A stretch of 56,945 bases of DNA, filler included, from Asterionella formosa (GCA_002256025.1; 5 parts of 5 records of this genome joined end to end with filler, not necessarily neighbours in it), one strand, 5' to 3'. Counted from the first letter of the whole stretch, positions 5,411-45,657 are shown. Made by a program: numbers and translations. Notes: generated from the letters alone by a model not told the origin.

Positions 5411-5979
5411 GGTGGAATCAACTTGTTGCTTACAATCAACCTCCTTTTTGCGTATTACTCGGCATGCAGCTACCGAACCTGGTAGTACCCTGGTACCAGG
5501 TACTCCCGAGTACCTGCGAAGTTGGGGTAAAAGACGGTTCTTACTATAAGGGAAACAAAAGCTAAACTTCTCATTTCCGCAACTTGCTCTACGGTAAAAT
5601 ATGCAGCTACCACATGATACATATCATAGCTACATGGGTACCTGGTACCCATACACACTGAACACACACCAGCACCCCTCATAATGGTGACTTGTCGTGA
5701 TGTGTATGAAAACGCATGGAGTACCTGTACCTGGTAACCATACAGGCATGTTCATACGTTCATACTGTATACCGGTATACAAACAACCAGCTTCTCTACC
5801 GGTAATATTATAGCAAAGAGTACCTGGTACCACCAGCTAGTACCATCAACAAAGAAAGATTTACCAGTCTATTACCGGGACACCGTTTCCTTATCGTTTG
5901 CATACATGGCATCAGCAACTGTGAGCCAACATAGACATCACTGATACTCTTCGCTTTGCCCGCTTCTCCCCTCCTCGTC
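5411..5979. promoter_or_regulatory. Probable bidirectional promoter between divergent VPS8 and DDX41
   Basis: 569 bp between two head-to-head start codons; dense in TACC(W)GGTA/GGTACC palindromes. Confidence 0.6.
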
Positions 5980-11329: not shown

Positions 11330-11429
11330 NNNNNNNNNNNNNNNNNNNNNNNNNNNNNNNNNNNNNNNNNNNNTTAATTAATTAANNNNNNNNNNNNNNN
11401 NNNNNNNNNNNNNNNNNNNNNNNNNNNNN
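11330..11429. other. Artificial contig spacer N44-TTAATTAATTAA-N44
   Basis: 100-bp spacer with stops in all six frames; identical at four places. Confidence 0.98.
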
Positions 11430-12052: not shown

Positions 12053-13475
12053 TGGCGTCTGCAAATAAACACCATCATATTCCTATGATGCATTATAGGA
12101 TTATGATCATCTGATCAATATATTTCGTTATATCATCTAATTATTTTGATGAATGCCCTCGTAATTTAAATAGTAACCCTTTTGACTATGGAAATTTAAT
12201 TTTTATATGTATTGTTTCTTTTAGTTACCTTTATTTAAATTTCTTGGTAGGATAATGGACAAGTTAAAGTAATGTGGTTTGGCTCATCATTCTCGCCAGT
12301 CCTCACTCTGATTCTTGCAACAACAACAAAGCAGTCATGTCAGGAGGAATGAGTATTTGTGATAAAATCTTCATTTATCGTTAAAGTCATCATATGTCTT
12401 CAATGAATCATCAACTACATTGTACAGTAAAATCGTATGCAATCCGTTTAGAGTTTGAAAAGAAATCCAATGAAAACGAAATGGCTCATCACACAAGACG
12501 AATATTTCCGGTCTGTCACCAGAGCATCAATCAGTGTTACAACCACAATCATAGCTAAATAGCATCCACTATAGAACAGCACAATCTACTTCTCTTTAGT
12601 AACATCGTTTCTTTTACAAGAACGTTATATATATATAGAATTGAAACGCAACATAGCAGGCGATATGCACAAGAAAGCATGAGACCATCTATTTATAGTA
12701 ACAGAGTGATTCTGGTTTCGAAATTTTCATGTCTCATCAGATTTCCTTTGTCATTGTACTAGTTTCATATCCTTGAAGACAGGAGCGTATTCTTTGGTGT
12801 ATCTGGAATGTTTCAATGGATGGCAGCAGTTGGATTTAGACACAAAAGCACTACTTTGTAGATGTTCATAAAAAGCCAAACACTTTGGCCTATCGACCAC
12901 CAGTCAGTCTATACTGCAAAAATGAAAGAAGCACAACTTGAATCCAGAAAGTGCAACAATGTAAAATATTAGAAACCGGAAGTCACATTACATCTAATTA
13001 CGGTTTTCATTGCTTAGCTATACTATCTAGTATTGATTGGTGCAAGGAAGCAATGGTAGAATGGCTGCCAAACGGGGGTGGGGGCAAACACAGAGAATCC
13101 TACTACTAATTTTTCTCCCCAATGATCCCAGTCCATTCTTGAATGTCACTTGCTACAGAAAATGGAGAACAGCCGCCATGATCTGTTGATTGTTGCTTTA
13201 TGGTGCCACTGTCCAGAAATCTCAATCAGTTGCTTGTTTCTTGACTTGAATGCAAAAAGGGATCGAAACCAGTGGGAAAATCAAAAGGGAACTAAAACTG
13301 CTCTGCAAACATCAGAACAATTGTGAAAGAGAAATGAAGTTTCTTGGGATTAGAAGTAAAGGGATAATTGCTTCTGGTCTTGTGGGAACAAGAATAGATT
13401 GACCCAATTGACCCAAACAATGTTCTTGACAAAAAGGGAACCAACCGGAAAAGGAAGCAATGCTTTCGGCATCAT
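12053..13475. repeat. Dispersed repeat family A, copy 1 (~1.4 kb)
   Basis: Colinear with 40685-42110 from TGGCGTCTGCAAATAAA...CCATCATATTCCT to GGAAGCAATGCTTT.GGCATCAT. Confidence 0.9.
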
Positions 13476-14557: not shown

Positions 14558-15190
14558 TATTGTGGCATTTCCATGATAGAATTAATTCTCAGCAAGTATA
14601 CAGTACAACTGGTAGGCCATATGAATTTTGGAATGTATATGGTCAATGTGTCAGAATACATAATTGTATGATTTTGACCATTTGAAAAATTGGCGATGAA
14701 TCCCGTTTATTAAGGGGCTTAATGAAATCAGCCACTGACTTGTAGGTACAAGAATTAACACCAAAAAATTGAAAAAACTCAACAGGTCGTGGAAAACTGT
14801 GAACGCGTCATGCATTGTATATATTTGAATTTTGTATAATCAAAATTGATATTAGTATACACAGGATATGCCATATAATGAGCGTGTTTAAAACTATGCA
14901 AATGTTCAACTATATATACATTTAAACTTACAAATCTTTGTATTCATGGCTGAAACATTTGAAATCATGTTTTCATGTTCCTTGTCATGCATACACTTTG
15001 CTCAAGAAATGAAGGATCATCACACATGATGACACGGAAAACGAAAGTGATAATACAGCACAATGATACTTGTGGCTTAGAAGAGAAGGGCGGAATCAAT
15101 TGATGGTGAGTTGCATCCACTTTCTGAAATGAAGGATCTCAAGCAACACATGATGCGAAAAGCTGTAGTGACAATACAGCACAATGATAC
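14558..15190. repeat. Dispersed repeat family B, copy 1
   Basis: Colinear with 25458-26130, sharing the left boundary TATTGTGG..TTCCATGATAGAA. Confidence 0.88.
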
Positions 15191-16427: not shown

Positions 16428-18988
16428 ATGAAAAATGATAGCAAGGATATCAAGAGAGGCAGCCCAGGTGATCACCTAAGTGCACACAAACCTTCTCTCA
16501 CTGCACATAAGAAGAGTATTGATGCCATCTTGCCTTTTGCTGATGAAGCAAAGGAAGATGAACAAGTACAGAAGGAACATGGTGACCACAAGGCTAGGCA
16601 AGGGCATAACATTACGTACCAGGTTTCTTCCAAGGAGGTGGTAGTGGAGCATGAAGAACCAGCACCTCCATCCCATCCTGGAGCTGTTGCGGTAGGAGGG
16701 AGTGGTTATGCAAGGTTAAGTTCTGAAAATGAAAGGTTTTTAGATGAGTCTTTTGGAATCGGTGAACAACCACTTGCCATTCATGGCGTAGAGGAAGGAC
16801 AACACCAACAGGAGGCCGTGAATGCCACTCTTGTTGATGAATTTCCCACTTCTAGGCATACCACTGCGGTGGCCATCAACACTGAGGCTGAAGTGAAGGC
16901 CCAACGTAACCGTAGCATGATTAACATCATGATTTCTTGTGGACTCACATGTCTTGTTGCCATTGTAGCTGTTGTCCTTGCAGTTGTGCTTACTCAGAAC
17001 AACAAACCGAATAATCCAACATTGGTTCCAATATCATATGTTCCAGACAATCAAACGTTGGCTCCCACATTTGTAATTCCCTCTACACCATTGTTTTTGT
17101 TTTTGTCTAATAACTCGTTTGATAATGGGACTGCGCTTTTGACCATTGGCACGCCACAACAACAGGCAATGGTCTGGTTGGAAAGTGAGAAAGGTACATC
17201 AGAAATGATGTATACTGATAAGTTGCTCCAAATCTATGCCTTGGTGACCTTTTATTATGCAACCGCTGGAGACCAATGGCTCAACCGTGGGGATAATGAC
17301 CAAGTCAGTGACAGGTCATTGTGGCTATTGAGTACCGACAATTATTGTAATTGGTTTGGATTGAAATGCGATGCAGATAGAAGCCAGGTCTATTCAATGA
17401 ATTTGACTAACAATACCTTAATGGGGTTCATTCCCCCGGAAATTGGTCGTTTGTCAAGTCTAGGTAAGTTAACATAACTGGCAAGAGATAAAAACAAATC
17501 ATTGAAGATTGCTCACTTATGAAATGAGTCATATCATTTACGACAAAGAATCTATTGATTTTTCATCAAACGATATAGATGGATCACTACCAAGTGAACT
17601 GGGTCTATTGTCAAGTGTTAAATTTTTGTCTCTATCTATTAATCAGCTTACTGGCCCAATTCCATTGGAGCTTGGACAGTTGACCAAAATCATAGGATTG
17701 TCATTGCTTGATAACAAGTTGACGGGAACACTTCCAACAGAGATAGGCCAATTGACTAACCTTGAGACATTACTTATAGGTTTGAACTTTTTGCAGGGAA
17801 CACTTCCTTCAGAAATTGGATTCTTGACAAGTCTGACATTTTTTTATCTACATAATAATCACTTCACTGGTGCATTTCCGACAGAAATCGGAAATTTGAA
17901 AAATGCTAGACTTTTTGCTGCACAATCAAACAATTTCACTGGGACACTTCTTACAGAGATTGGAAACTTGAGAAGTCTGACACTTTTGCAACTACATAAT
18001 AATCACTTGACTGGTGCACTTCCGACAGACATGGGCAAGTTGACAAGCCTTATGGAATTATCCGCCTACAGGAACCTGTTAAATGGAACACTTCCTGCAG
18101 AGATTGGACTCTTGACAAGTCTAACAACATTGTATCTAGATGATAATCAGCTGACTGGTGTACTTCCTACAGAAATTGTCAATTTGACAAGTCTCAGAAA
18201 ATTTGAAGCCTACAGTAACCATTTCAATGGCACCCTTCCTACACAGATTGGATTCTTGACAAGTCTAACATTATTGTATCTTTATGATAATCAATTTACT
18301 GGTGCACTTCCTACAGAGGTTGGAAATTTGACAAACCTCATAGAATTTGCAGCCTACAGCAACCAGTTGAATGGAACACTTCCAACAGAAATTGGATTCT
18401 TGACAAGTCTAACATTATTGTATCTCCCTTATAATCAGCTGACTGGTTCACTTCCTACAGAGGTAGGATTCTTGACCAGTCTAACATCATTGGATTTATA
18501 TGATAATAAATTGACTGGTGCATTTCCAACAGAAATCGGTAATTTGGAAAATGTTGTATTTCTTGATGCAAGCGCCAACCATTTCAATGGAACACTTCCT
18601 TCAGAGATTGGATTCTTGACAAGTCTAAAAATCCTGTACCTACCTGCTAATCAGTTGACTGGTGTACTTCCAGCAGAAATTGGCAATTTGACAAGTCTTA
18701 ATGATTTTCAGATTCATTCCAACATGTTAACTGGTATGATTCCCACAGAAATTGGTCTCATGTCTTCATTGAGTAAGTTTTGTTTTTCTGAATCATACAT
18801 TTCTTCACTGATTGTTCTAAAATTTCGCTATTTTGATAGCTTTATTAAATTTTGGAAATAATAATTTCACTGGGCCAGTTCCAGAAGAAGCATGTGATAT
18901 TGGACCAATGCAGAACATTTTTGTTTGCCCACCATTGATTTGCAACTGCAGCAAGTCCTGCATGAATGGCAAGAATTGTTCATCTTAG
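16428..18988 (+). CDS. Type II membrane LRR receptor-like protein; exons 16428-17463, 17549-18772, 18840-18988
   Basis: N-terminal tail with PGAVAVGG; one TM (LVAIVAVVLAVVL); P/T stalk; N-cap (ALVTFYYATAGDQW...YCNWFGLKC); 17 plant-type 24-aa LRRs in exon 2; Cys-rich end CPPLICNCSKSC. Both GT-AG introns keep frame and match the paralog. Confidence 0.88.
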
Positions 18989-19007
18989 TGACCTTAGCTT
19001 TCTCAAT

Positions 19008-22751: not shown

Positions 22752-22851
22752 NNNNNNNNNNNNNNNNNNNNNNNNNNNNNNNNNNNNNNNNNNNNTTAAT
22801 TAATTAANNNNNNNNNNNNNNNNNNNNNNNNNNNNNNNNNNNNNNNNNNNN
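22752..22851. other. Artificial contig spacer
   Basis: N44-TTAATTAATTAA-N44. Confidence 0.98.
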
Positions 22852-23389
22852 ACTACCGGTACATAATGATACCAAACCAGTCCTCAAACCATGCAAGAAA
22901 TCTACGCGAATTATGTATATGGACTACTATAGTCAATTGTGTTTGCACATGTATTTGTTGTAGTCACGTGATCATTTTCGTATTCTATTGCCTAGTACGT
23001 GCTGGACGAGTGATAGTAGAATGTACCGGTCGGTAGTCACAGCCAAAGCCAAAGTATTTGCACAGCTAGTATATGTCGTAGTCACGTGATCATTTTCGTA
23101 TTCTATTGCCTAGTACCTTGTCATGAATTCCCGGACCAGGTACCAGGGTACCAGGTACCTGTAATTAGATAGCGGGTATGTCTCTATGCACATGACTCAA
23201 TCTGTTCAATTTTCGACTCTGTGGTAGTCGTTCTTTGGTCTTGTGGCTGAACATTACCACACACGGCCGCTATAATGATTGTATTGTGCTTCTTTGATGC
23301 ACACCATAATAATTTTTGTGTGTATTATCTAGATGTCAATAAAAGTACTGCCCTGCAGGCGTATTTTCGGTTATTTTATTAGTGACAAC

Positions 23390-23589
23390 AGAAATGATAC
23401 CCGCGTGAAAACGTCAGTATCACTGATACAGTTTTTGGAGGGGGCAAAAAAAGGGATCAATTTTGTATCATTGATACAAAATTGATACCATCAAGTTACC
23501 GTTGCTGATACCGTGTTTTGATACCAACCGTCATTTTTTGCCCGCAACCCGGAAATGATACAGCGAATTCGGAATGATAAGAACGACCC
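23390..23589. mobile_element. Right end of a relative of the Harbinger-type MITE
   Basis: AATGATAAGAACGACCC (23573-23589) followed by TAA; shares GTATCACTGATACAGTTTTTGG and AGTTACCGTTGCTGAT with the 8287-9279 element. Confidence 0.75.
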
Positions 23590-24129
23590 TAAGCGTGCGT
23601 CCGATGACTGCAATCCTCGGCTTGCTGTGATAGTTAATCTGCCAATCGTGAGTGCGGATGGAGTATTTGAGGGGAAAAAGCGCCGAGGGGTTAGAACAAC
23701 TGAGCCACGACACAGCGCAAGACAACAACAAGCTCTCGGGGTGCTTGTACCAGTACTTGCTTATATTGTTCAGCTATCGTCACATGAGTGCTTCTGATAA
23801 GCGCTGAAGGACACTCTCTCGAGTCGGCGTCGCTTTGGCGTGCGTAGTGCGAGTTCAATTTGCCAATTTTACATTGACAATGCGCACTTACTTCAGCCTA
23901 CAGCGGCGATGTTTATGGTTGCGTCAATTTGGTGCATGAGGATGGCGAAAACTCTTTTCACTGTCATTTCTTGGCCGTTTCATACCTTCTTGGCATATGT
24001 ACCATACATTACTTGAGGTGTCTTTCGCAATGATTTATCCTCTAAAACAATTTTATCTTGAACTTTTAAAATATGTAGTTGTAACATCAACTAGTTTTGT
24101 CTTGGAAATCACTGTATGATTCTGAACCA

Positions 24130-24507
24130 TCACATGAAAACCTCGAAGAGAAGTCTTGTTCACTATAATAGTTCATATCATTTACGTGAAGTGCACAACA
24201 ATAAACTGTAGATTGTCCATGCATGAAATAAGACACCACAAATATCCTTACTATTTCACAAATAAAGATGCGTGTAGTAAATGGATTAGCCACGAGAGCA
24301 GGATATTAGTCGCACTTTGAAATGAATTATTTGAAACATCAACTAATTCAGTCTCGAGTTCAAAGTTCATTGTGAAAACTTCACATGAAGCCGTTAAAAG
24401 TAACCTATTTTACGGGAAGAGTGGCATTAATTCATGTTAAGTACCCCATCATTAACACTCCTACGTAAATGAAATTTCGAAAAGTGGCGTATTTCGCGGC
24501 TTAGATG
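24130..24507 (-). repeat. Transposon terminal sequence, inverted copy of 28781-29180
   Basis: Reverse complement begins CATCTAAGCCGCGAAATACGCCACTTTTCGAAATTT, identical to 28781 onward, and decays away from that end. Confidence 0.88.
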
Positions 24508-24544
24508 TACTGGGGGTAGTCAGAATACGCAACAACAAACGAGT

Positions 24545-24765
24545 GGTGCCATGTTATATCGCATAATTCTATTATGCCTGCACTAATAAATCATTATCAT
24601 TTTTTTGGTGGTGACTTAGAAGGATTATTTGGTACAACTCCATTTGAGGTTCTTCATCAATTACTACTTGGAATATTTAAGTTCGCACATTTTGGAATCT
24701 TTGTACAATTATTGGACTATCCCTGAAGAATGGACACTTTTTTTTAAAGAAAGAAAATCTCCAGA
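24545..24765 (+). mobile_element. Plavaka/CACTA-like transposase core fragment
   Basis: Translates HFFGGDLEGLFGTTPFEVLHQLLLGIFKF, matching the FG..G...P.E.LH...LG pattern I associate with Plavaka-like transposases. Confidence 0.6.
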
Positions 24766-24869
24766 TATTCCAGAGAACATCGTCTGCAAATAAAAAGTAG
24801 TGTACATATCAGATCAGGGGTATCGTATGATAACTGGCACAGAATTTTTCTGGGCATGATACGCATTTT

Positions 24870-25457
24870 GTTGTGTTGGTGAAACCAAGATGTCGTGTGA
24901 TGGAGGAAATGAGATGCGGCTGGGACAAAGAGATTGTTCCTCCCTTTGATGCTTGCTCCACTTTTCTAATTCCCAAATAATCAGGAAATTTTCCTCTCAT
25001 CTGTAAGATTAAATATAGCCTTCATCGCCACAATGCACCTATCAATCTCATCGTCACTAGTAAAGATTCCATCGTCCACATACACCATAAAAATGGTAGA
25101 CTCTTTGAAACAGATACAATCATCAGCCGAACTTTGAGCAAACCCTACCCATAGCAGTCCCTTGGTCGGGTGTTGAGACCACGTATGTCCAGCCTGCTTC
25201 TGACCACCATATATATTTAAGGATCTTGCGGCAGTGGTCGGATCGACCGTCCAGCCTGCTTCTGACCACCATATATATTTAAGGATCTTGCGGCAGTGGT
25301 CGGATCGACCCCCCTCCGGCAATTGAAAACCATGAGGTATCTTCATGTACAATTTGCACTTGGCGTCTGCCTGAGGTTACGCCAATGTAAAGTCGATCTG
25401 ACGGGTGCTCCATTCGTGCATCAACGATAGCGTCAAAAAGAAACGTATAGGTGGCCA
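24870..25457 (-). mobile_element. Ty1/Copia reverse transcriptase remnant
   Basis: WPPIRFFL...RQIDFTLA*PQA...LYMKIPHGF, NIYGGQKQAGHTW, MVYVDDGIF, DYLGI, LSQPHLI; contains a ~59-bp tandem duplication at about 25189-25309. Confidence 0.9.
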
Positions 25458-26700
25458 TATTGTGGTACTTCCATGATAGAAGTACTACCCAGCAAGTATA
25501 CAGTACTACCGGTAGGCCATATGAATTTTGGTCAATATGTCTATATACATAAATGTATGATTTCGACCATTTGAAAAATTGGTGATGACTCCCATTTATT
25601 AAGGGGCTTAATTAAATCAGCCACTGACTTGTAGATACAAGAATTGACACACAAAAAATTGAAAAAACTCAACAGGTTGTGGAATACTATGAAAACATCA
25701 TGCATTGTACATATTTGAATTATGTATAATCAAAATTGATATTAGTATACACAGGATGTGCCGTATAATGAGCGTGTTTAAAACTATGCAAATGTTCAAC
25801 TATATATACATTTAAACTTCTTAGAAATCTTTATATATATGTATTCATGGCTGAAACATTTGAAATCATGTTTTCATGTTCCTTGTCATGCATACACTTT
25901 GCTCCTGAATTGAAGTATTAACACAGATGATGACGTGGAAAACGAAAGTGATAATAAAGCACAATGATACTTGCGGCTTAGAAGAGAAGGGCGGAATCAA
26001 TTAATGGTAAGTCAAGAGCAGATGCCATTCATTTTCCTTGTCATGCTGCATCCACTTCCTCAAATGAAGGATCTCAAGCAACACATGATGCGAAAAACTG
26101 AAGTGACAATACAGCACGATGTGAATATGATGGAGAAGGGTGGAATCAACAAGCTGTGCATAGCATCACGGTTTGTCAAGAGCAACTGCCAAGATGATCA
26201 ATTGCTGGGATTACAAATACAGAATGACTCGTCCCCTTTCAGTGATTCAATAGCTCCTTTTCGATTTGGTTGCTGGCCAACCATCAATGCGGACAAAAGA
26301 AATCGGTAAGTGCTGCCTATCAGCCATCTTTGGATCAATCCACAACTGTTAGAAAAACTGACACATATGTGTTGCTTCTTTTCAGGATAATGGTAGACAA
26401 ACAGTACTATTTGTAAGTTACAAACAGCAGTGTTGGAGCCCATTTATTGATCGATACTTTGCTTCTCATTCAATCTTCGACTGACACATTCTTCTACAGA
26501 AATATGCATCAGTTACTTCCTCAATTTGTGGTAAGTGAAGCAAGATAGAAGCGAAATGAATGTTGTTGTCTAAGCAAAATATGAACAGCTAACAATGAAT
26601 TGCTTCTCTTTGTTAGTATGGCTGATTGGAACAACGAAACGGATTCAATAGTGCGTGAATGCAAACTCAGATCCGTCAGGAGTAAATGGAACAAAGCAAT
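25458..26700. repeat. Dispersed repeat family B, copy 2
   Basis: Matches 14558-15190 closely and about 38130-39050 more distantly. Confidence 0.85.
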
Positions 26701-26731
26701 TCAAAAAGAGTCGAATTAGAACAAAACGAAC

Positions 26732-28780
26732 ATGGCAATGTATTCAACGGTTCCTTTCATTCCTTTGATCAAAGACTACAATGTATTGACTATCAAGACT
26801 AAAACATTCAGAATTGCTTTAACCGGTGGAAGGTTTGAATCGTTTGATCAAGATATGATCAATGGAAGCTCAGTGGAAGCATTGTTAATTGGAGTGAGTC
26901 AATTTCGTGACATGGCTAACACATGTGCCTTAAGCCCTGCAGATACCTTTTCCTACTTTAAAAGGTGTTTGACCGACATTGCCTTATCGGATTGGTTGAA
27001 TGTGGAAGTACACCCAGAAGATCAATCTGACGATAGTTTCGATGAAGCGATGGTTTTATGGTTAGACGATTGTTTACCAAACGAGAGTTGAGATTTCAAC
27101 GTCAACGACAATGGATGCTACGTTATTTATCTAAACCCTTTTCTATGTTGGTAATGGATTTCGGAGCTCGTATTAAAACTTTAAACAGGCTACTTCAACT
27201 AATGCCTCATCCAGAAGATCAAGTTGGATTGTCAAAAGAAGATATGCGGATTATCATTATCCGTTCTATGCCCGATGAGTGGCAACAAGAGTTTGAATTA
27301 AATCATGCAAAGACTTCAGACCGATCCATTCGCTCGGGCATCGCTTACTTTGAGAGTCAACAATCGTTTAAGGATCGAAACAAGCATCTTCCCAAGAACA
27401 GTTTTCAAACAATCACACAAAATCGTCTTCGTATTGCTGAAGGCAATCGTGTGATGCGTCAAGAAAACGAGCATGTCAGTCGTCAATTCTACAACGATAA
27501 TTTTACTCCAAGTGGTCGTGGAAGAGCGCGTGCTAGTATTGTCAATGCAGTCGGACGCGCGTGGGATCGTCAGGCGACTTTTCGTCATCAAGCTCTAGAA
27601 GCCAGTCGTACGTACCATGATTATCGTGGTCCTTGCCCGGTACATCCTGAAGGTGCACATACTTGGGGCAATTGTTTCCAGAATCCTCGTACTCAAGGTG
27701 GTCGAGCAGGTCGCATGGCTGGTCGTTATAATGGACATGGCCGTTCCAGTTTCGGTAGACGAGGACATTTTGGTGGTCGTGGAGGCGGTTCACACAGCAA
27801 TCCTAGGGAAAGCTATCATACTGACACTGCTAACCCTGTGCCTGTTCCACATGCTCGTATGTTAAATGCATGGGGTCATAATACTCATCCATCCGGTTGG
27901 GGTACCGTGCCACGTGCCGATCCTACCGAGAATACATCTGCCCAGGAAATTTCAGTGGTCACGAACCCTCCTGCTGGTCAGATAGTGACTTTTGTCCCTA
28001 CTACACAACAGCAGATTGCTGATCGCCATCACCGAGGTATGTGCAATAATAGCGATGCTATATATAATGACTCGTTGAGTATATCTCACGTTAGTCATCA
28101 CCTGAATAATATTGTTTACTTACAGGTTGAATACACTATGGATACCGCTGTTACTGTAACGCGGGATATATATAACTGTATTGATGGACATGATGTTCCA
28201 CATACATATCAGGGCCCAATTCCGCTTTCCTGTTTTACTTCTAAGGATATATTAACATCAATTGATTTGATTCATCGGTCCCTTTTAGCGCCAAGATTGG
28301 TGGATGATATACCGATACATAAAATACTACGAGTATTATTTGATAGTGGAGGATCGTTATCCTTAATACATGAACGGGTTATGCCTCAAGGTATTTCTTT
28401 ATCTGACGAGACTTCCCAATTAATACATACCATACCTGGTATTTATTCATCTCATGCCAGTGTCATGCTATATGACCTGATTCTACCAGAATTTAATCGA
28501 ACCGCTCATATTTTACAACAAAAGTGTCAAGTCTTTAATGGTCTATGCACATTTGATATTATTTTAGGACGTGATTTCCTCCGTCAAGTTGGTTTAACCA
28601 TTGATTTCGTAAATAACATCATGTCCTGTATGGATATGATCGTTCCTATGCATCCTCTTACGTTCTTTGATGATAGAGAACAATTACGAGATGTATTATT
28701 ATATTTTGATGCACCTATGATTGTGGAATCTTCATATGCGCTGGAAATTAAAGCTGCTGAATATAATTACGTAAATATTG
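26732..28780 (+). mobile_element. Ty3/Gypsy-like gag-protease remnant, truncated before RT
   Basis: Gag-like ORFs with a frameshift near 27060-27091; knuckle PCPVHPEGAHTWGNC; aspartic protease LRVLFDSGGSLSLI...DIILGRDFL; cut at 28781 by a transposon terminus. Confidence 0.85.
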
Positions 28781-29280
28781 CATCTAAGCCGCGAAATACG
28801 CCACTTTTCGAAATTTTGTCTACGTATGAGTGTTAATTATGTGGTACTTCACATGCATTAATGTCACTCTTCACGTAAAAAAGATTACTTTTAACGGTTT
28901 CATGTGAAGTTTTAACTGTTTCATGTGAAGTTTTCACAATGAATTTTGAACGCAAGACTGAATTAGTTGATGTCTCAAATAATTCATTTGAAAGTTCAAA
29001 TAAGATCCTGCTCTTGAGGCTAATATATTCACAACACGCATTTTACTTAATGAAATAGTAAGGATATTTGTGGTGTCTAATGTCATCCATCTGAGATCAA
29101 AGTTTTACGGTTGTACACATCACATGAAGAACTCACACTTACCGGTAAAAAAGCTCCCTCTTCCCAGTTTTCATGTTATGTAGGTTATTACCGGTACTAG
29201 GTAAATGTACTACTAGCCAGTGGTAGGCAACCCAATTTTTTTACGTGATTATTATTACTCAAAATCAACACTGGTGGAAT

Positions 29281-29457
29281 TATGTCTACTGATGAGGATG
29301 GTACCAGGTAGTATTGTTTGCCAAATATGTGCCAAACAAGGTCCATTATTTTAGCTACCAGTTATTCTTATGTCTACTGATGAGGATGGTACCAGGTAGT
29401 ATTGTTTGCCAAATATGTGCCAAACAAGGTCCATTATTTTAGCTACCAGTTATTCTT
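29281..29457 (+). repeat. Exact 88-bp tandem duplication
   Basis: TATGTCTACTGATGAGGATGG...GTTATTCT starts at 29281 and 29369. Confidence 0.93.
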
Positions 29458-29500
29458 ATTTTTCTCTCGCCAACACAGCACTGCAAAGACAGTAAATATC

Positions 29501-29880
29501 ATGGATCTGTGTGACAATAACGACGAGGACAAATGTCAATTCTGTGGTAAAGGTCCTTTTAAATCAATTCGTGGTCATCACAAACACAGCCCCTCGTGTG
29601 GGCAACAAGATATGATTCAATCTCAGATTCAAGCATCGCAGACATCATCAATGGTAGCGACTTCTCCAAGAGATGGACGACACCACTCTCAAGACCCCCT
29701 TGCAAAATTCCTGAAACAATCGCCAGCAGCCATTGATTTCGTTCAAACAGTTTGTTTTGATGCCGATGACTATGATAATGGTTTATTCCTTGATAGTTTA
29801 GTAGATCATGATGCTGCTGCTATTAATGGTCCAATCATTCAGAACGGAGAAATAAACGACATTATAAACCCTACTGTGAA
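29501..29880 (+). pseudogene. Zinc-finger N-terminus of a transposase-like protein, interrupted near 29871
   Basis: MDLCDNNDEDKCQFCGKGPFKSIRGHHKHSPSC followed by an acidic linker, then unrelated sequence. Confidence 0.5.
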
Positions 29881-30624
29881 ATTGTACCTATTACTACGCT
29901 GGTTTTGGTTTGCACTACCAGCATTCCCTTCTTCCCCTTTGTCTCAATACCCGGTCGGAACATGACGTGGCTACTGTGAAATTGTACCTATTATTACGCT
30001 GGTACTATGAAACTGTAGCTTTGCGCTACCAATCTAATGTCTATTACTGATTATGTCGGTGCTGCATTGCTTCCGATCCAGCACTTGCCCTCTGTCTAAT
30101 CCTATGGTTGACAGATCATTATCCCTTTCTGCTTCCTTGTTCTGTTACAGTCACGTTTCTCTTGACAACTTGACATTCGCACGCTATTGATAGTGCAATA
30201 TATTACTTGTTATCTGGAATGGCTATTACTTGTTATCTGGAATGGCAAACGTTCCAAGTGCTACAAGGAATAGAACGTTCTTGGTTGTGAAGGGGATACC
30301 GATCGCAGATTTTTCAATAAGGAAAAAACTGTTTCTATGGCGTATTTCATGTCTGTTCTCAAGAGACAACGGAAGAGTAGTAAGGAACGACTCTAAGTAC
30401 TGGTTAGATACTTTGATCATGATGACAAAGGCAAGGAGACGAGACTAGATGACAGTGTCCTGGATTTTGTTCTCATCAAATTCTATGTGGGGTTAGCTTC
30501 TGGCTTGTTTAACAAAAAATCATTTGAAACTTCAAGGAAATTTCGGAAACATAGAGGACTAGCGATGATTTTATGGAAAACTCACTTTCCTTGAGATTTT
30601 AGACTACATCAGAAATAACACAAT

Positions 30625-31488
30625 ATGTCACCAAATGCAGCAGAAATAGAGGTTTTCCTATCTTTCATCACTGAGGATTCATTATGGTTAATCAAAACAG
30701 TTCTGAGAACCGATAACTTCGTTTATGTTATCGACAGAATTGAACAAGAATTTGATTTTTTCCTTAATTTATCTTTCCTTCCAGATGAGTTTTTCGGAAC
30801 GGAAGAAAAATATGATCCATTTTTGCATGTGGCAACATCTTTTTCTACATCCAAGAAAAGCTATAACCCTCCTAATTGTTTGTTGAAACAAACATTCAAA
30901 ACAACTGCAACATATAAAGCACTTGCAAATACCATGGAAGGAAAAACCATGCAAGTGTTTTCTTTCAAGAATTATACTAACAGCTTAAAATATTCAAAGC
31001 TGGATCTGCGAAATGTAAAAACATTTTGGCATATGATAAAGTGCTTGTTAATACCAGGTTCCGATGATGTCTCTGGCAATAGCTTCAGAGTTATACCACA
31101 CACTGCCACTATGTTGTTCACCAATTCTGGAAAGAATGGCAACCCAAAACCTCAGAAACCACACCAAGATTATACACCAACAGATTGCGAAAGGGAAACT
31201 CCTATGCCTTGGAGAATGATAATGTCCTTGTCTTTAGGAGGGAACTGTTTAAATAAATGGGATAATTGTGCGGATGAGAAGCATGCAATACATTTGTCCA
31301 TACCATTCAAATTCATCTTTCTCATGCGTGGAGATATAGTCCATGGAGGAGCTTTGGATAATAGTTTTAAAAATGGTGCTCTACGGATTCATTTCTATTT
31401 GTCGCCAGCTATAAAGCGAATAAATGGACACTCTGCCGCCGAACTGAAACGACAGGATAACAACATACACACTGATGGATTACACTGA
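30625..31488 (+). CDS. 2-oxoglutarate/Fe(II)-dependent dioxygenase (PhyH-like DSBH fold)
   Basis: QKPHQDY (HxD), MRGDIVHGG (distal His), LRIHFYL (2OG-binding Arg), with typical spacing. Confidence 0.68.
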   Translation: MSPNAAEIEVFLSFITEDSLWLIKTVLRTDNFVYVIDRIEQEFDFFLNLSFLPDEFFGTEEKYDPFLHVATSFSTSKKSYNPPNCLLKQTFKTTATYKALANTMEGKTMQVFSFKNYTNSLKYSKLDLRNVKTFWHMIKCLLIPGSDDVSGNSFRVIPHTATMLFTNSGKNGNPKPQKPHQDYTPTDCERETPMPWRMIMSLSLGGNCLNKWDNCADEKHAIHLSIPFKFIFLMRGDIVHGGALDNSFKNGALRIHFYLSPAIKRINGHSAAELKRQDNNIHTDGLH

Positions 31489-31698
31489 TGGATCAATATG
31501 TGGTCATAACCAGAAATTCTCGTCATTCTTATTGCAACATGACGGAACAGGATGGTCTAACTTATGATCTAATTTGATAAAAAAGAATCCAAAAATAAGT
31601 TTTTGGGTTTGGTTTGGATCAACGATTAGTAATGGCCGTAAAGTAACCGAAGACAATATTCACTTGCCAGGAAAGTTCTCTTCCCCAGTGTTTACACC

Positions 31699-32500
31699 AT
31701 GTCACTGTTGGTGAGCGACGGAAGTACTGATACAGTTAAATCAGATGAATCTGAATTTGAAGATTCAAATTCGATAAATACTAGAAAGGAAGCAGAGGCA
31801 TCCATTGTTGTGAAACCCAAACAATTAAATTTTTCAGCGGAGAAAGACCAATGTGGAATTTGGTACATTTCCGGCGGTATTAAACAACTGTGTACACAAC
31901 GAAACCGCTCAGATGAGACAGTATACTACCGCTTGTTTCATCCAGACAACGAACATGGTAAACCTGCTGCCATTCAGAACCTTGTAAATTCTGCCGTACA
32001 GCGGTGCAAGGACAAAACTTCTACTGGAACTACGTCTGTAGAGATAGATCGGATCGATTTCTATTATCATGTTACTATAATCTCCAAAGATGACGGTACG
32101 AAAACAATTTTAAGATTTAATAAAAAATGGAACAAACAGGACAAGAGTCTTCATCAATCAAATTCTTGGTTTGATTGGGTTGAAGTGAATTGGGAAACAA
32201 GTCGAAATGGGAAAAATTACAGTGTACCAGCAAAATTACTTTTTTTGGGTAATGTTGTTTATTCAAATGATTATTCAGATTGAACTGAAACACTCCTTGC
32301 ATCTATACGTTCTTTGAAGAGTACCAGTGTCATGCCAGCACATCATCGCTTGTTTTTTGCTACAGGTGATTACATTTGTGATAAGAAGACTTAAGCGTTG
32401 TTGAGCATAACAATATTCTTTCCACAGCATATTTGTAGTCCCAGCTTTAGCACCAGCTACAATCAGTAAATGTAAGAGTACCCGAGAAACCGTTGAAGCC
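31699..32500 (+). pseudogene. Plavaka-like transposase C-terminal-type domain
   Basis: LRFNKKW...SWFDWVEVNW...YSVPAKLLFL; coding-like sequence continues past the stop at 32283. Confidence 0.5.
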
Positions 32501-32659
32501 ATGGAAAATACAGATTATTATATTACATTACCACCACAAAATCAATGGAAATTGATTGGTTGGGATATTCCTTCTTTAAGTACGACAGAGAAGTAGCACT
32601 AATCGTCACAATACAAATTATTACGAATATACTTCAACATTTAATAACTGCCTCCGAAT

Positions 32660-34091
32660 TCATAGTTTACTTATCTTTATGTTTTTTCTTTTTTTTGGAG
32701 AACCTGACGATGAAAATGAACTTTCATTATCCACTGATTCTTCAGAAGATTTCAATAAACTCTTGAAATCTTTGTATAGTATATCATGCTGGCTGTCATT
32801 CAGGAGAACAGCATACCTGCTCACTTTCTGCATGCCCTCAGCAACAACGAAAGCACGTTCGTATTCTTTATCAAATTTCAAGGTTTCTTCATTACCATGC
32901 CAATGGTAAGATTCTACGGGATGATGAACCATTTTACTAAGATACATCAGTTCAGTTGTAGTAAAAATCGGAGATAACTCGAATTCAGGATTGAACTCCA
33001 TTGCTGCAACTTTGTCACAACATGAACCCACAATGGTGTGGAGAACATATACCATAACTGCATCGTCAACTTCATTCTCTGGATTACCAGGAAATGACCA
33101 TCCATTTTGATTTTCACCCTTAAATTTCATTTTCATAAATGTATCCCAACCATCCTTTGTTAAACGTGACTCACTTCGTTTCCCCATTAAATTAGTTTCT
33201 CCACTGTATCGTAGTTGTAGTAGTAATTCTATAAACTTCACAATTGTAAAGGGACCACATGACCATCCACCATCCTTGGTTGGTTAGAAAATCTTTGAAT
33301 CTAAATGTTTTGCTATAAAACATTTCAGAGGGCCTTTCCCACAGAAACCACTGTCCACCTTAAATTGAGGTTCCCCATCGCTCGGTGTAACCTCGGATTT
33401 TTGGTATCTCACTGAATGTTTTCAGAAAACTCTCTCGATATTCTGATCGAGCCTTATTCATGCCAGATTTCCATTTTTCGAACTCGGTTTTGAATTTGAC
33501 CATAGCTTTGGAGTAACTAATTTCTTTGTTAATATCTATACCAGGGCAAATACGTTTTTTGCGTGCAATCTCGTGAATGCATTTCAAATGACTTTTCAAA
33601 CTAACTCCATGTTCAGGATCACGTAATTCAACGTTGCCTTCATTTAGATCAAAACAATATAGAACATAATGTTGATGATGTCGTGTTTGTAAATAAATCA
33701 CAATAAGGAAGAATTCAATGGAGGGTTGGAAATAAAAACTGTTAGATGGATAAGGACTTTCAGTATTCCAGTCATTTCTGTCTTGAGATTCAATCATTAC
33801 ATGAATGTTTGAGGGATGCAGTTCATGAACAATGACCTTCACAATGGCGGTCACAATTTCAGTATCCCAATATGCACAATTGTCCAATTCAATAAGATTG
33901 TCCCTGTACTGCTTCTCTGACAATTTAAGGGAATACTCATTCCTGCAATATTGACGTACTTCTGAGGGGGAGCGAGAGTATGTATTGTAGTAAAGCTTAT
34001 GTGACTCCGGACCCAAGTCAATGGGTTGATGTTTTGCTGGAATGATGAAACACTGAAGTACTACAGAGAGCTTCTTGTTGATATTGAACAA
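32660..34091 (-). pseudogene. Ulp1/C48-like cysteine protease, disrupted near 33280-33360
   Basis: YWDTEIVTA...HYVLYCFDLNEGNVELRDP (His, Asp), and DGGWSCGPFTIVKF (Cys) in frame with ORF 32660-33241. Confidence 0.62.
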
Positions 34092-34157
34092 CAGAACGCA
34101 ATCGAAAAGGAACGAATATCAAACAGTGAGGGTAAGCCCGACATTGAAGGTAGGCAA

Positions 34158-34257
34158 NNNNNNNNNNNNNNNNNNNNNNNNNNNNNNNNNNNNNNNNNNN
34201 NTTAATTAATTAANNNNNNNNNNNNNNNNNNNNNNNNNNNNNNNNNNNNNNNNNNNN
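34158..34257. other. Artificial contig spacer
   Basis: N44-TTAATTAATTAA-N44. Confidence 0.98.
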
Positions 34258-40684: not shown

Positions 40685-42110
40685 TGGCGTCTGCAAATAA
40701 AAAACCATCATATTCCTTTGATGCATCATAGGATTATGATCATCTGATCATAATTTTTTGTTATATCATCTAATAATTTTGATAAATGCCCTCGTATTTT
40801 AAATAGTAAACCTTTTGACTATGTATACATATAATTACTATATTTATTGTTTCTATTCAGTTCCTTTATTTAAATTTCTTGGTAGGATAATGTCGTACCA
40901 GCTAAAGTAATGTGGTTAGGCTCATCATCCTCTCCAGTCCACACTCTGATTCTTGCTACAACGACAAAGCAGCCATGTCGAGAGGAACAAGTGTTTATGA
41001 TTAAATCCTCATTTGTTGTTCAAGTCATCATATGTCTTCGATTAATCATCATCGACAGTGCACAGTATGTTTTTATGCAATCCGTTAAGATCTTGAAAAG
41101 AAATCCAATGAAGACGAAATGGCTCATCACACAAGACGAATATTTCCGGTCTGTCACCAGAGCATTGATCAGTGTTACAACATTAATCATACCTAAACAA
41201 CATCCATTATAGAACAGCAGCACAGTCTACTTCTATGCTACATCGTCTCTCTAACGAGAACATGATATATTTAGAATTGAAAGGCAGCATGGCAGGAGAT
41301 ATGCACAAAGAAGCAAGAGACTGTCTATGTATAGTAACAGAGTGATTCTGGTTTCGTAATTTTCATGTCTCATTAGATTTCCTTTGTCATCATACTAGTT
41401 CCTTACCTTTGATGACAGGAGCGTATTCTTTGTTTGATGTATCTGGAATGGTTCAATGGATGGCAGCAGTTTGATTTAGAAACAAAATAAGACAAAAGCA
41501 CGACTTTTTAGATGTTCATGAAAAGCGAAACACTTTGGCATATCCACCACGAGCCAGTCTATACTACTGCAAAAATTCAAGAAGCACAAGTTGAATTCTC
41601 GTTTATTGATTCTAGTTTCAGTAGTGCAATGTAAAAAAAGAAACCGAAAGTAACATTTCATCTAGTTATGGTTTTCATTTTACTACTATTGATTGAGAGG
41701 AAGCAATGGTAGAATGCCAAACAGGCGGGTGTAAACAACACAGAGGAGCTAATTTTTCTTCCCAATGATCCCAGACCCTCTTGGATGTCACTTGCTACAG
41801 AAAATGGAGAACAGCCGCCATGATCTGTTGATTGTTGTTGTATGGTGCCACTGACCAAAACCTCCAGAAATCGCAATGAGCGAGTTGTTTCTTGACTTGA
41901 ATGACCAAGGGATCAAAACCAGTGCAAAAAGCAAAAGGGAACAAAAAATTCTCTGCAAACATCAGGACAATTGTGAAAGAGAAAGGAAGGTTGAGAGGGG
42001 AAGTAAAGGGATTATTGCTGGTCTTGCTGGAACAAGGATGGATTGACCCAAACAATGTTGACAAATAGATACTACTTACCGGAAAAAGGAAGCAATGCTT
42101 TTGGCATCAT
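40685..42110. repeat. Dispersed repeat family A, copy 2
   Basis: Colinear with 12053-13475. Confidence 0.9.
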
Positions 42111-42531: not shown

Positions 42532-43035
42532 TTGGATAAAAGTAGTAAATTTAAAATTGGCAATCAAAAAACAGTTTTTGAACTTTTTCGATTTTCACTT
42601 ATGGCTATCTCGAGCAAAATGCAGATGCATGAGGACCCAATTTTCTTCGAACCATCTATAAGTGCCATCAAATCGATGCAATTGTGTCCGGATGGAGGGA
42701 GAACCTACCTCACACAAATAATGAAATGCGTATCATGCACAGAAATATTCTGTGCCAGTTACAAAGCAAAATTTTATTGGAATTGATATAAATAGTTATT
42801 GATTTGCTAGATATTTAGTTCTAGATGTTACTCACGAATTCCCCTGACTAATCTAGTATATTGCAAAACAGTATGTCTGACCAAAAATCCGTAGGACCAT
42901 AATGGGGCTTCTCATTAGATGATGAAATATAATTGCCTTAAGTTCAAACAAGCAGATGCTTGTAAGTCAACTATTCCAGAAGGTCGAAGATAAAAAATTT
43001 GTATGTATGTACACAAGTCATCAAAGCAAAGGTGA

Positions 43036-44606
43036 CTAACCAGTACAATTCAAGCTCTCTTTACAGGAACTGCTGCAGTTGCAAATTAGTGGTGGGCAAA
43101 CAAAAATGTACTGTATTGGTGAAATAATACATGCTTCTGTTGGAACTGTGCCTGTAAAGTTGTTCTTTCCAAGAGATAATAAGGCTGCCAAGAAAGTGAA
43201 ATATTAGCACAAACTTTCAAGAAAAGTAAGTTTAAGCTCAAATAACTCACTCAATGCAGACATGAGACCAATTTCTGTGGGAATTGTACCAGTAAACTTA
43301 TTGCTTCCAATCCTAAATGCTGTGATGTTGGCCAACTGTCCAAGCTCTACTGGAATTGGACCAGTAAGCTGGTTCTGGAATAAAAGCAACTTTGTAATAC
43401 TTGTCAGAAGACCCAGTTCACTTGGTAGTGATCCATCTATGGCATTTGTTGAAAAATCAATAGATTCTTTGTCGTAAAATGATTTGACTCATTTCATTAG
43501 CGAGCGATCTTCAATTATTTATTTTTGTCTCTTGCCGGGTATGTTAACTTACCCAATCTTGACAAAAGACCAATTTCCGGGGGAATAGACCCCAATAAGG
43601 TATTGTTAGTCAAATCTATCGAAATGACCTGGCCCACATTATTGCATGTCAATCCAGACCAATCATCACAATAATTGTGGATACTAAATAGCCACGACCT
43701 GCTATTGAATTGGTCTTTCGTACCTTGGTTGAGCCACTGGTCTCCAGAGGTTGCATAATAAAGGGTCACCAATGCATAGATTTGGAGCAATTCAGTATCC
43801 ATGATTTCTGTAGTACCTGGCTCACTTTCTAACCAGATCGTTGCCTGCTGCTGTGGGGAGCCGTCAGTCAAAAGTGCAGCCCCCTTATCAAACGAGGTTT
43901 TAGATAGCAAGGAGAACAAAGCAGACGTAGGACTTGGTGATGGAGGAATTGATGTTGGATTCGATGTGAAAGGAGCCAATGTCTCATTGCCTGACTTGTT
44001 CCGAGTAAGCACAACTGCAACTACAGCAGCAACAATCGCAACAAGACTTGTGAGTCCACAAGATACCATGATGTTAATCATGCTACGGCGACGTTGGGCT
44101 TTCCCTTCAGCTTCAGCGTCGATGGCCGTCACAGTGGTAAACATAACAGGGACAGAATCATCAACAAGAGTGGCATTCACGGCCTCCTGTTGGCTTCCCT
44201 CTATGCTATGCATGGCAAGTGGTTGCTGAATTATTCCCTGGGACTCCACTAAAGACCATTCATCGTTGGTACTTGACCTTGCATGACCACTCCCTCCCAC
44301 CGCGACTGCTCCAGGAAGTGTTTGTGGAGGTGCTCCCAGTTCTTCATGCTCCACCACCGCAGGAGAACCCCCCTGCAAAATGTTAGGCCCTCGTCCAGCC
44401 CTGCGGTTAACATGATGTTCCTTCCCATCAATGTCTTCTCCATGTAAAAACTCAGAGTCCCAAGCTCGTTCTTCCTCCTTTGCTTCGTCAGCAAAAGGCA
44501 CCCTGCTGGCATAATCGCTCTTCTGTTTTGCAGTGCCAGAAGGTTTCAGTGACCTTACATGATCATTTTGGCTGCCTTTCTTGACTTCCTTGCTGTCGTT
44601 GTTCAT
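43036..44606 (-). CDS. Type II membrane LRR receptor-like protein, short paralog; exons 44606-43553, 43466-43251, 43184-43036
   Basis: Same architecture and intron positions as 16428-18988 (PFADEAKEE, PGAVAVGGSG, QEAVNATLVD, SMINIM.SCGLT, TM, N-cap); only 3 LRRs in exon 2; ends CPPLICNCSSSCKESLNCTG*. Confidence 0.88.
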
Positions 44607-45557: not shown

Positions 45558-45657
45558 NNNNNNNNNNNNNNNNNNNNNNNNNNNNNNNNNNNNNNNNNNN
45601 NTTAATTAATTAANNNNNNNNNNNNNNNNNNNNNNNNNNNNNNNNNNNNNNNNNNNN
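45558..45657. other. Artificial contig spacer
   Basis: N44-TTAATTAATTAA-N44. Confidence 0.98.

Follow-up and report, generated by a model that had tools for sequence, protein, structure and literature searches.

Genes for Ulp1/SENP proteases (Peptidase_C48) are carried by plant Mutator and CACTA elements. Among Plavaka transposons, the PlavakaB families of Agaricomycotina, which belong to the CMCT/EnSpm clade, have ends of the form 5'-CATCA..TGATG-3' with 2-3 bp duplications, PlavakaA termini are of the form 5'-TGT..ACA-3', and some PlavakaB elements carry TET/JBP genes, according to the accessible part of a 2025 survey (PMC12730594). Red algae (bioRxiv 10.1101/2025.02.11.637652) and brown algae (PMC12477816) have giant EnSpm/Plavaka elements that contain accessory genes and nested insertions, according to the accessible parts of the respective reports. 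The giant red-algal Plavaka elements carry the accessory genes PAG1-3, of which PAG3 encodes a ParB-like and 2-oxoglutarate (2OG)-oxygenase protein beside tandem repeats (bioRxiv 10.1101/2025.02.11.637652, accessible part). Our literature searches found no paper on Plavaka in diatoms, the descriptions being from fungi and red algae.

Here, we analyze a Plavaka-type element in a stretch of 56,945 nucleotides (nt) of DNA from Asterionella formosa (GCA_002256025.1), the whole of which is referred to as the window. The window is made up of five ~11.3-kb pieces joined by linkers, which were located as N runs in the sequence, and the element lies within piece 3 (22852-34157; Table 1). The original prediction for positions 28781-34157 was a Plavaka/CACTA-like transposon that carries a 2OG-Fe(II) dioxygenase and a Ulp1-like protease as an anti-silencing or chromatin-modifying module. 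The features on which it drew are mostly real, and the linkage proposed between them is not supported. We conclude that the element, which comes from an alga found in freshwater samples, is of the Plavaka/EnSpm kind, decayed, and nonautonomous, that its core has probably been replaced by a piece of a foreign repeat containing an intact oxygenase gene, and that the oxygenase is probably an accidental passenger specific to this copy.

The transposon end and the transposase remnant

Position 28781 is a true mobile-element end. Between 28781-29123 and the reverse complement of 24186-24507, there is a match of 343 nt with 79.6% identity (E 4e-88), and the outer end of both terminal copies starts CATCTAAGCC. 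This 10-mer by itself is not significant, with six matches at no more than one mismatch and 10 of 100 shuffles reaching the same number, and it is on account of the long inverted repeat rather than the 10-mer that 28781 is called an end. Coding sequence is interrupted at both copies: at 28780, a retroelement frame of 596 codons (ORF [open reading frame] 27046-28836) that matches Pfam RVP (E 5e-05, 24 bits versus a cut-off of 20.7), and near 24508, a fragment of another Plavaka-type transposase that resembles the protein P0114 and begins 16 nt from the outer edge at 24507. Contigs from sequencing runs X2 and X3 track the retroelement up to 28780 and then pass into different sequence, and one contig of run X23 enters at 28774 with a different left flank; the retroelement sequence that follows 28780 in the other runs has no match anywhere in the window. 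The sharp terminus that had been predicted at 28781 is thus borne out by the 343-nt inverted copy and by contigs of other runs with different flanks. Exact TTCATGTGA sites number six in the window, five of them inside the two terminal regions, and none of 100 shuffles reaches six; this clustering resembles the subterminal repeats of cut-and-paste elements. One end per copy lies within the window, the 3' end of the element falling past the linker at 34158, and at both copies the 5' end reads CATCT, which fits the PlavakaB CATCA at four of five positions.

The predicted WFDW...PAK domain is found at 32167-32241, in an ORF (31642-32283) that is 89% identical to protein P0011, and it proves to belong to the C-terminal third of a Plavaka transposase. 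Homology continues through two frame changes, and over 31651-32584 the identity with P0114 (664 aa [amino acids]) and P0125 (652 aa), which are longer members of the same 90% cluster, is 88-90%. Over its entire length, P0011 can be aligned with P0057 (1219 aa) and P0058 (1023 aa), the identity being 41-44% (E ~1e-87), and these two contain PF18759 at residues 269-502 and 77-293, with scores of 50.6 and 59.3 bits, respectively, versus a cut-off of 26.3. The window copy retains only residues 357-662 of P0114, equivalent to residues 910-1212 of P0057, so that Plavaka-transposase homology is confined to the C-terminal region. No part of P0057 residues 1-909 was found between 28781 and 34157 by tblastn with seven full-length relatives; because the PF18759 catalytic domain, a DDE domain that in Plavaka transposons has C(2)C and H(3-4)H motifs, is missing, the copy is nonautonomous and cannot move by itself. 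Assignment of the element to the Plavaka/EnSpm type holds, through the homology of the transposase C terminus to PF18759 proteins and the CATCT end. Scans of viral contigs with P0114 and for the oxygenase family described below returned nothing.

The zinc-finger ORF of the original prediction is also present, in a frame spanning 29384-29965 with its ATG at 29501 and the motif CQFCGK...HHKHSPSC. It has no Pfam match above cut-off. Its pattern resembles the Cys/His-rich N termini of P0057 and P0101, and it is possibly the N-terminal exon of the transposase; neither BLASTP nor hhalign detected homology between it and the N termini of Plavaka proteins. As a separate observation on this end of the element, 33 contigs of run X1 and one of X2 join 28998/28999 straight to 29732/29735. 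A stretch of ~735 nt, which takes in the start and the zinc finger of the ORF, is thus missing from many copies of the terminal region, and these copies derive from the element by deletion.

The oxygenase gene and the segment that holds it

An interruption of the element had been placed at about 29871-30460. The interrupting segment in fact extends from about 29875 to 31575 and includes the oxygenase ORF, the very gene that was predicted to be cargo of the transposon. At the left junction, contigs of X2, X3, and X23 agree with the zinc-finger ORF as far as 29874, beyond which its frame runs on in other sequence. The segment begins with tandem repeats of ~100 nt at 29871-30003, where a 33-nt repeat was detected, and the CTAC at 29871-29874 belongs both to the zinc-finger ORF and to the tandem-repeat unit, recurring at 29971. 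Being common to both partners, it constitutes a 4-nt microhomology at the junction. A metagenome scan with the conserved peptides of the oxygenase family returned eight loci from 95 pattern matches, and one of these, L002, is collinear with window positions 29907-31415 at 83.6% identity. The presumed interruption and the oxygenase ORF are therefore one unit. Upstream, L002 has four copies of a ~115-125-nt repeat, of which the window has ~1.3.

At the right junction, locus L001 matches window positions 30620-31575 (88.6% identity) and L003 matches 31173-31575 (82.8%), and both matches stop at 31575. Beyond that point, L001 and L003 stay alike (90.7% identity over 300 nt) in sequence that is absent from the window, and the same sequence is read there by a poly(A) RNA contig of X23. 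In L003, it holds a 448-codon ORF (L003:681-2027, minus strand) that faces the oxygenase gene in convergent orientation, does not occur in the window, and has no Pfam, NCBIfam, or PDB relative; it is the usual neighbor of the oxygenase gene in related copies. What follows the oxygenase gene in L001 and L003 is thus neither transposase nor protease, and homologs unlinked to terminus, transposase, or protease are what the original prediction had itself named as refuting the proposed module. In the window, an X1 unitig spans 31546-31678 without any difference. Summed contig depth in X1, which is not a copy number, is 1-2.6 million over 28507-30014, 0.3-0.6 million over 30015-31522, and 0.07-0.17 million over 31523-34157. 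A distant oxygenase homolog of 498 aa (31% identity; locus L006) sits among genes for a kinase, pyruvate kinase, AAA_16, and peptidase M3 proteins, with no transposon domain. The distant loci L004 and L007 also showed no transposon domain by Pfam, but almost nothing there matches Pfam at all.

The 287-aa protein encoded by the segment belongs to an undescribed family. An exhaustive HMMER search with the oxygenase ORF gave 45 cluster representatives at E ≤ 1e-3, of which many are fragments with identities of 55-85% and some are proteins 280-670 aa long with identities of 20-43%. Neither the ORF (E ≤ 1) nor 19 homologs (E ≤ 0.1) matched any Pfam family, TET/JBP and PhyH included, no NCBIfam model matched the ORF or its relatives, and PDB sequence searches with the ORF and with profiles A3 and A6 found nothing relevant. 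The family alignment has the pattern Q.PH.DY ... PW..(D/I).PL..GG..LN.W ... IP....L.RGD.VH.GG ... NGALR.H.Y, represented in the window by PHQDY (31159-31173), RGDIVHGG (31327-31350), and LRIHFY (31381-31398). The candidate residues are H182-Q-D184, H242, and R256, the Arg lying 14 residues past the distal His. H242 and R256 do not vary in alignment A2, where D184 reaches at least 90% conservation; homolog P0042 has Tyr in place of the first His of the triad. An AlphaFold model built on the family alignment has a mean predicted local distance difference test score (pLDDT) of 69.5, rising to 83-91 over the strand-rich residues 161-260, and a Foldseek search of the PDB with this model yielded 348 matches at E ≤ 1e-3. 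All the top matches listed are 2OG/Fe(II) oxygenases (PHD2, SnoN, OkaE, FtmOx1, AusE, PrhA, AsqJ, and AndA), with query-normalized template modeling (TM) scores of 0.29-0.44. By this model, the protein has the double-stranded beta-helix fold of an Fe(II)/2OG oxygenase, and its sequence has the HxD...H motif and the basic residue; we regard the predicted fold assignment as sound, with no subfamily standing out. It is predicted to bind Fe(II) via H182, D184, and H242 and 2-oxoglutarate via R256. No TET or JBP chain is among the matches listed in two fold searches, with which a distant relation would still be compatible. The intact motifs, the fold matches, and this negative result agree with the predicted HQD...H...R dioxygenase that is not obviously TET, and the PhyH-like label once given to it finds no match in Pfam PhyH. 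In the window and the longer oxygenase homologs, we detected neither a ParB-like N-terminal domain (Pfam, PDB profile search) nor a methylase domain. The ratio of nonsynonymous to synonymous substitution rates (dN/dS) of the window ORF is 0.42, 0.40, and 0.33 against L001, L002, and L003, respectively. Most related copies are frameshifted. The oxygenase is multi-copy, and not the single-copy host gene that the original prediction had named as its negation.

Two further observations concern relatives of this segment. Compared with window positions 30625-31415 and with L001, L002:1095-1973 and L003:1-425 contain dense short insertions. Those of L002 inside the oxygenase ORF comprise 11 of +4 nt and three of +3 nt, with about three more in the 700 nt upstream, and the four located where L002 overlaps L003 are common to L003, the two loci being from different sources. 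Almost all of the insertions follow the scheme XYZ + G or C + XYZ (CAA-G-CAA, GGG-C-GGG, CTG-G-CTG, TAG-C-TAG) or TA-GC-TA, and they look like excision footprints, in which a 3-bp target duplication keeps one terminal base of a C...G-ended element; fourteen per 800 bp seems too many for such footprints in L002. In poly(A) RNA run X23, the leader at 30313-30606 has the highest depth of the piece, and the RNA contig diverges after 30606, just before the oxygenase start codon, so that an expressed paralog has the leader without the downstream sequence of the window copy. RNA contigs over the oxygenase ORF are only ~94% identical to it and hence derive from paralogs, giving no reading on expression of the window copy.

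The account that we favor runs as follows. A Plavaka/EnSpm-type cut-and-paste transposon inserted into a retroelement gag-protease gene at 28780/28781, and what the present copy retains is its CATCT terminus with subterminal repeats, the small ORF with the zinc finger, and ~310 residues from the end of the transposase. Where the catalytic part was, there now stands a 1.7-kb piece of another repeat family, consisting of a tandem-repeat leader and the oxygenase gene. The CTAC microhomology on the left and the truncation with 75 nt of filler on the right suggest illegitimate recombination or gap repair as the way in which this piece came to be there. The collinearity of L001-L003, both junctions, the steps in depth, and the gene context of L006 together make it most likely that the link between oxygenase and transposon is accidental. 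Several points weigh against this account. Only eight related loci were recovered, most of them short and none showing sequence upstream of the tandem repeats, and a transposon context elsewhere is possible. In neither the window nor the recovered loci did we see an intact element with its two ends and a target duplication. As no sequence similarity ties the zinc-finger ORF to Plavaka proteins, the union of terminus and transposase remnant in one element rests on position and the terminus motif. X1 may be the source sample, in which case the unitig across 31575/31576 is not independent support. The oxygenase ORF is intact amid decayed surroundings, with dN/dS below 1. Finally, 2OG oxygenases are recurrent Plavaka accessory genes in fungi (PMC12730594) and, with adjacent tandem repeats, in red algae (bioRxiv 10.1101/2025.02.11.637652), as far as the accessible parts of these sources go, which gives the view of the original prediction a higher prior.

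That view makes the oxygenase a true accessory gene of a Plavaka subfamily in diatoms, working with the Ulp1-like protease as an anti-silencing or chromatin-modifying module, the present copy being a rearranged one; we nonetheless consider it unlikely. The position of the oxygenase, flanked by a Plavaka-like terminus on one side and the remnant of a Plavaka transposase on the other, its intact frame with a dN/dS of 0.33-0.42, its multiple copies, the tandem repeat that precedes it here and, fourfold, in L002, and the fungal TET/JBP and red-algal 2OG-oxygenase precedents just cited all speak for it, but in L001 and L003, the gene is followed by different conserved sequence with the 448-aa ORF, other copies of the zinc-finger ORF stay coding beyond 29874, read depth differs several-fold between the three parts, most related oxygenase copies are frameshifted, and L006 lies in an ordinary gene context. 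There is a similarly small chance that the oxygenase unit is part of another, undescribed mobile element (tandem-repeat leader, oxygenase, and convergent 448-aa gene) one copy of which would have inserted into the Plavaka copy or recombined with it. For such a unit, we found neither a transposase nor termini nor a target duplication, the contigs are short, and a host gene family expanded by tandem or segmental duplication would look identical; on the other side stand the high, variant-rich coverage of 30015-31522 in the source run, the 45 cluster representatives with their many fragments at 55-85% identity, the collinearity over 1.5-2 kb of copies from three different metagenome sources, and a partner ORF without relatives in Pfam, NCBIfam, or the PDB. 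We find it doubtful, too, that the 287-aa protein founds an Fe(II)/2OG family multiplied in this alga in a mobile cassette of leader, oxygenase, and 448-aa partner moving between transposon families. If true, EnSpm/Plavaka-type transposons would have recruited a 2OG oxygenase independently for a third time, the enzyme might act on the DNA or chromatin of the element itself, and the cassette would parallel the PAG cassette in red algae and the TET/JBP genes in fungi. An assembly chimera, in which unrelated repeats of a highly repetitive genome were joined by the assembler at 29874 and 31575, is very improbable. The whole piece is repeated, with 206,216 X1 contigs on 11.3 kb and many joints and loose ends, and the junction at 29874 has its 4-nt microhomology inside a tandem repeat; against this, the X1 unitig covers 31546-31678 without difference (not independently, if X1 is the source sample), and the ORFs on either side are in the order expected for a single element.

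The protease-like gene and the surrounding sequence

The convergent protease ORF of the original prediction does have its His/Asp and SCGP motifs, but they lie in two frames, minus-strand 34118-33360 and 33283-32660, that are separated by a TAA at 33284-33286, and the gene is a pseudogene in the window. HHQHYVLY...LRDPEH (33680-33609), in the region of HYVLYCFDLNEGNVELRDP, falls in the first frame and GGWSCGPF (33271-33248), with the WSCGPF core, in the other, the TAA preceding the Cys by nine codons. As judged by eye, the His of HY is 17 residues from the Asp of RDP, and WSCGPF follows ~110 residues later. A His-to-Asp spacing of 17 is as in Ulp1, and the Asp-to-Cys distance in the window is about twice as long. 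Relatives of the ORF at ~70% identity are all fragments. PF02902 of Pfam matched neither half (E ≤ 1) nor any of 11 family members (E ≤ 10), in searches whose sensitivity is lowered by the split frames; PDB sequence searches with both halves were empty; and the structure model has a pLDDT of 42.9, too low to use. In a protein language-model search, 26 of the 30 nearest clusters fell in a set whose best cluster has Peptidase_C48 (PF02902) in 27% of its members (score 0.93, 166 shared features). The motifs and this lead, which is not proof, make a Ulp1-like assignment plausible. This gene lies 75 nt from the transposase remnant, in convergent orientation and at similar read depth. Since it stands beside the transposase at comparable depth, it is a better candidate than the oxygenase for a real accessory gene, and we consider it the more likely of the two to be one, though broken in the window copy. 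Part of 32277-33030 is uncovered in poly(A) run X23.

The right end of the element, predicted at 34157, is not biological; it is the end of piece 3 at an artificial N linker. As the window was joined from separate pieces, features across any linker are not genomic neighbors, and an LRR (leucine-rich repeat)-kinase to the right of 34158-34257 is, the linker being artificial, no neighbor of the element. Piece 3 is a pile of nested, decayed repeats. Within it, two perfect tandem duplications, 100% identical, at 29280-29455 (88 nt x2) and 25187-25310 (62 nt x2), are recent events amid decayed sequence. Repeat families at 73-94% identity are common to pieces 2, 3, and 4 (14558-15186 versus 25458-26121; 12067-13342 versus 40700-41992), and they include an inverted pair, 16660-19001 versus 43023-44332, that overlaps LRR-domain ORFs. 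Piece 1 contains host genes for a Vps8-like protein of 1803 codons (212-5623, minus strand) and a DEAD-box helicase (5935-7965, plus strand).

Table 1. Coordinates of the element, its parts, and adjoining features in the window
Feature	Position	Strand	Basis or remarks
Fragment of a different, older Plavaka-type transposase	24523-24775	+	tblastn; P0114 residues 36-116, 55% identity
Second terminal-region copy, pointing left, outer end 24507	24186-24507	-	Inverted 343-nt match
Retroelement gag-protease frame, cut by terminus at 28780	27046-28780	+	ORF 27046-28836; Pfam RVP
Terminal region of DNA transposon	28781-29123	+	Starts CATCTAAGCC; subterminal TTCATGTGA motifs; inverted match to 24186-24507
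Zinc-finger ORF (CxxC...H...C), truncated at 29874	29501-29874	+	ATG 29501; other-run contigs diverge after 29874
Probable foreign 1.7-kb segment of another repeat family	29875-31575	+	Tandem-repeat leader, oxygenase ORF, 87 nt of 3' flank; truncated at 31575
Intact 287-aa ORF, predicted 2OG/Fe(II)-oxygenase fold	30625-31488	+	HxD 31162-31170; distal His within 31327-31350; Arg within 31381-31398
75-nt filler between oxygenase segment and transposase remnant	31576-31650	.	Matches neither L001/L003 nor P0114
C-terminal third of Plavaka-type transposase	31651-32584	+	P0011/P0114/P0125 matches; frame changes near 32391, 32432
Convergent pseudogene, plausibly Ulp1-like	32660-34157	-	Frames 34118-33360 and 33283-32660; TAA 33284-33286; 5' end runs off piece
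Artificial linker closing piece 3	34158-34257	.	N44-TTAATTAATTAA-N44
N runs/linkers of the window, artificial	11330-11429, 22752-22851, 34158-34257, 45558-45657		Each N44-TTAATTAATTAA-N44

Significance and comparison with known systems

A Plavaka family with long subterminal regions and a protease-like neighbor gene would extend the known range of these elements, and the oxygenase-fold family, with proteins of 280-670 aa in several uncultured eukaryotes, merits a family description. The related copies lend no support to an anti-silencing oxygenase module, which so far carries small weight for the question of how transposons escape silencing.

Like Ulp1/SENP genes, the protease-like gene has a His, then 17 residues, then an Asp, followed by a Cys-Gly motif, stands beside a transposase gene, and has plant clusters partly with PF02902 as its language-model neighbors; unlike them, it is broken, is without a Pfam match or usable model, and has an Asp-to-Cys distance about twice as long. 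The oxygenase is only 5-16% identical to Fe(II)/2OG oxygenases of known structure and is matched by no Pfam or NCBIfam model, whereas it shares with them the predicted fold, the HxD...H triad, and the Arg at +14, its best structural matches being rice ALKBH1 (5xoi), AndA (5zm2), PHD2 (6zbo), OkaE, FtmOx1, and PHYHD1.

Compared with Pack-MULE-type carriers of gene fragments, as they appear in the accessible part of a report on giant brown-algal elements (PMC12477816), the window copy is similar in that its transposase core would have been replaced by foreign, gene-bearing sequence with microhomology at a junction; it differs in that the piece holds a complete ORF, and we saw no evidence that the chimeric copy multiplied. 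The red-algal giant Plavaka (bioRxiv 10.1101/2025.02.11.637652, accessible part, PAG3 being compared by description only) differs in its size from the small, broken element of the window, in which no ParB-like or methylase domain was detected, and agrees with it in belonging to an algal Plavaka lineage, in having a 2OG-type gene after tandem repeats, and in its mostly degenerate copies. The PlavakaB elements of Agaricomycotina, some with TET/JBP genes (PMC12730594, accessible part), contrast with the present one in their host, here an alga from freshwater samples, in the catalytic domain that the window copy has lost, and in their oxygenases, the one in the window having no Pfam match and being unlinked to the transposase in related copies. 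The window copy resembles these same PlavakaB elements in a transposase C terminus homologous to PF18759 proteins, in a 5' terminus CATCT close to CATCA, and in the association, in this copy, of a gene with a predicted 2OG-oxygenase fold.

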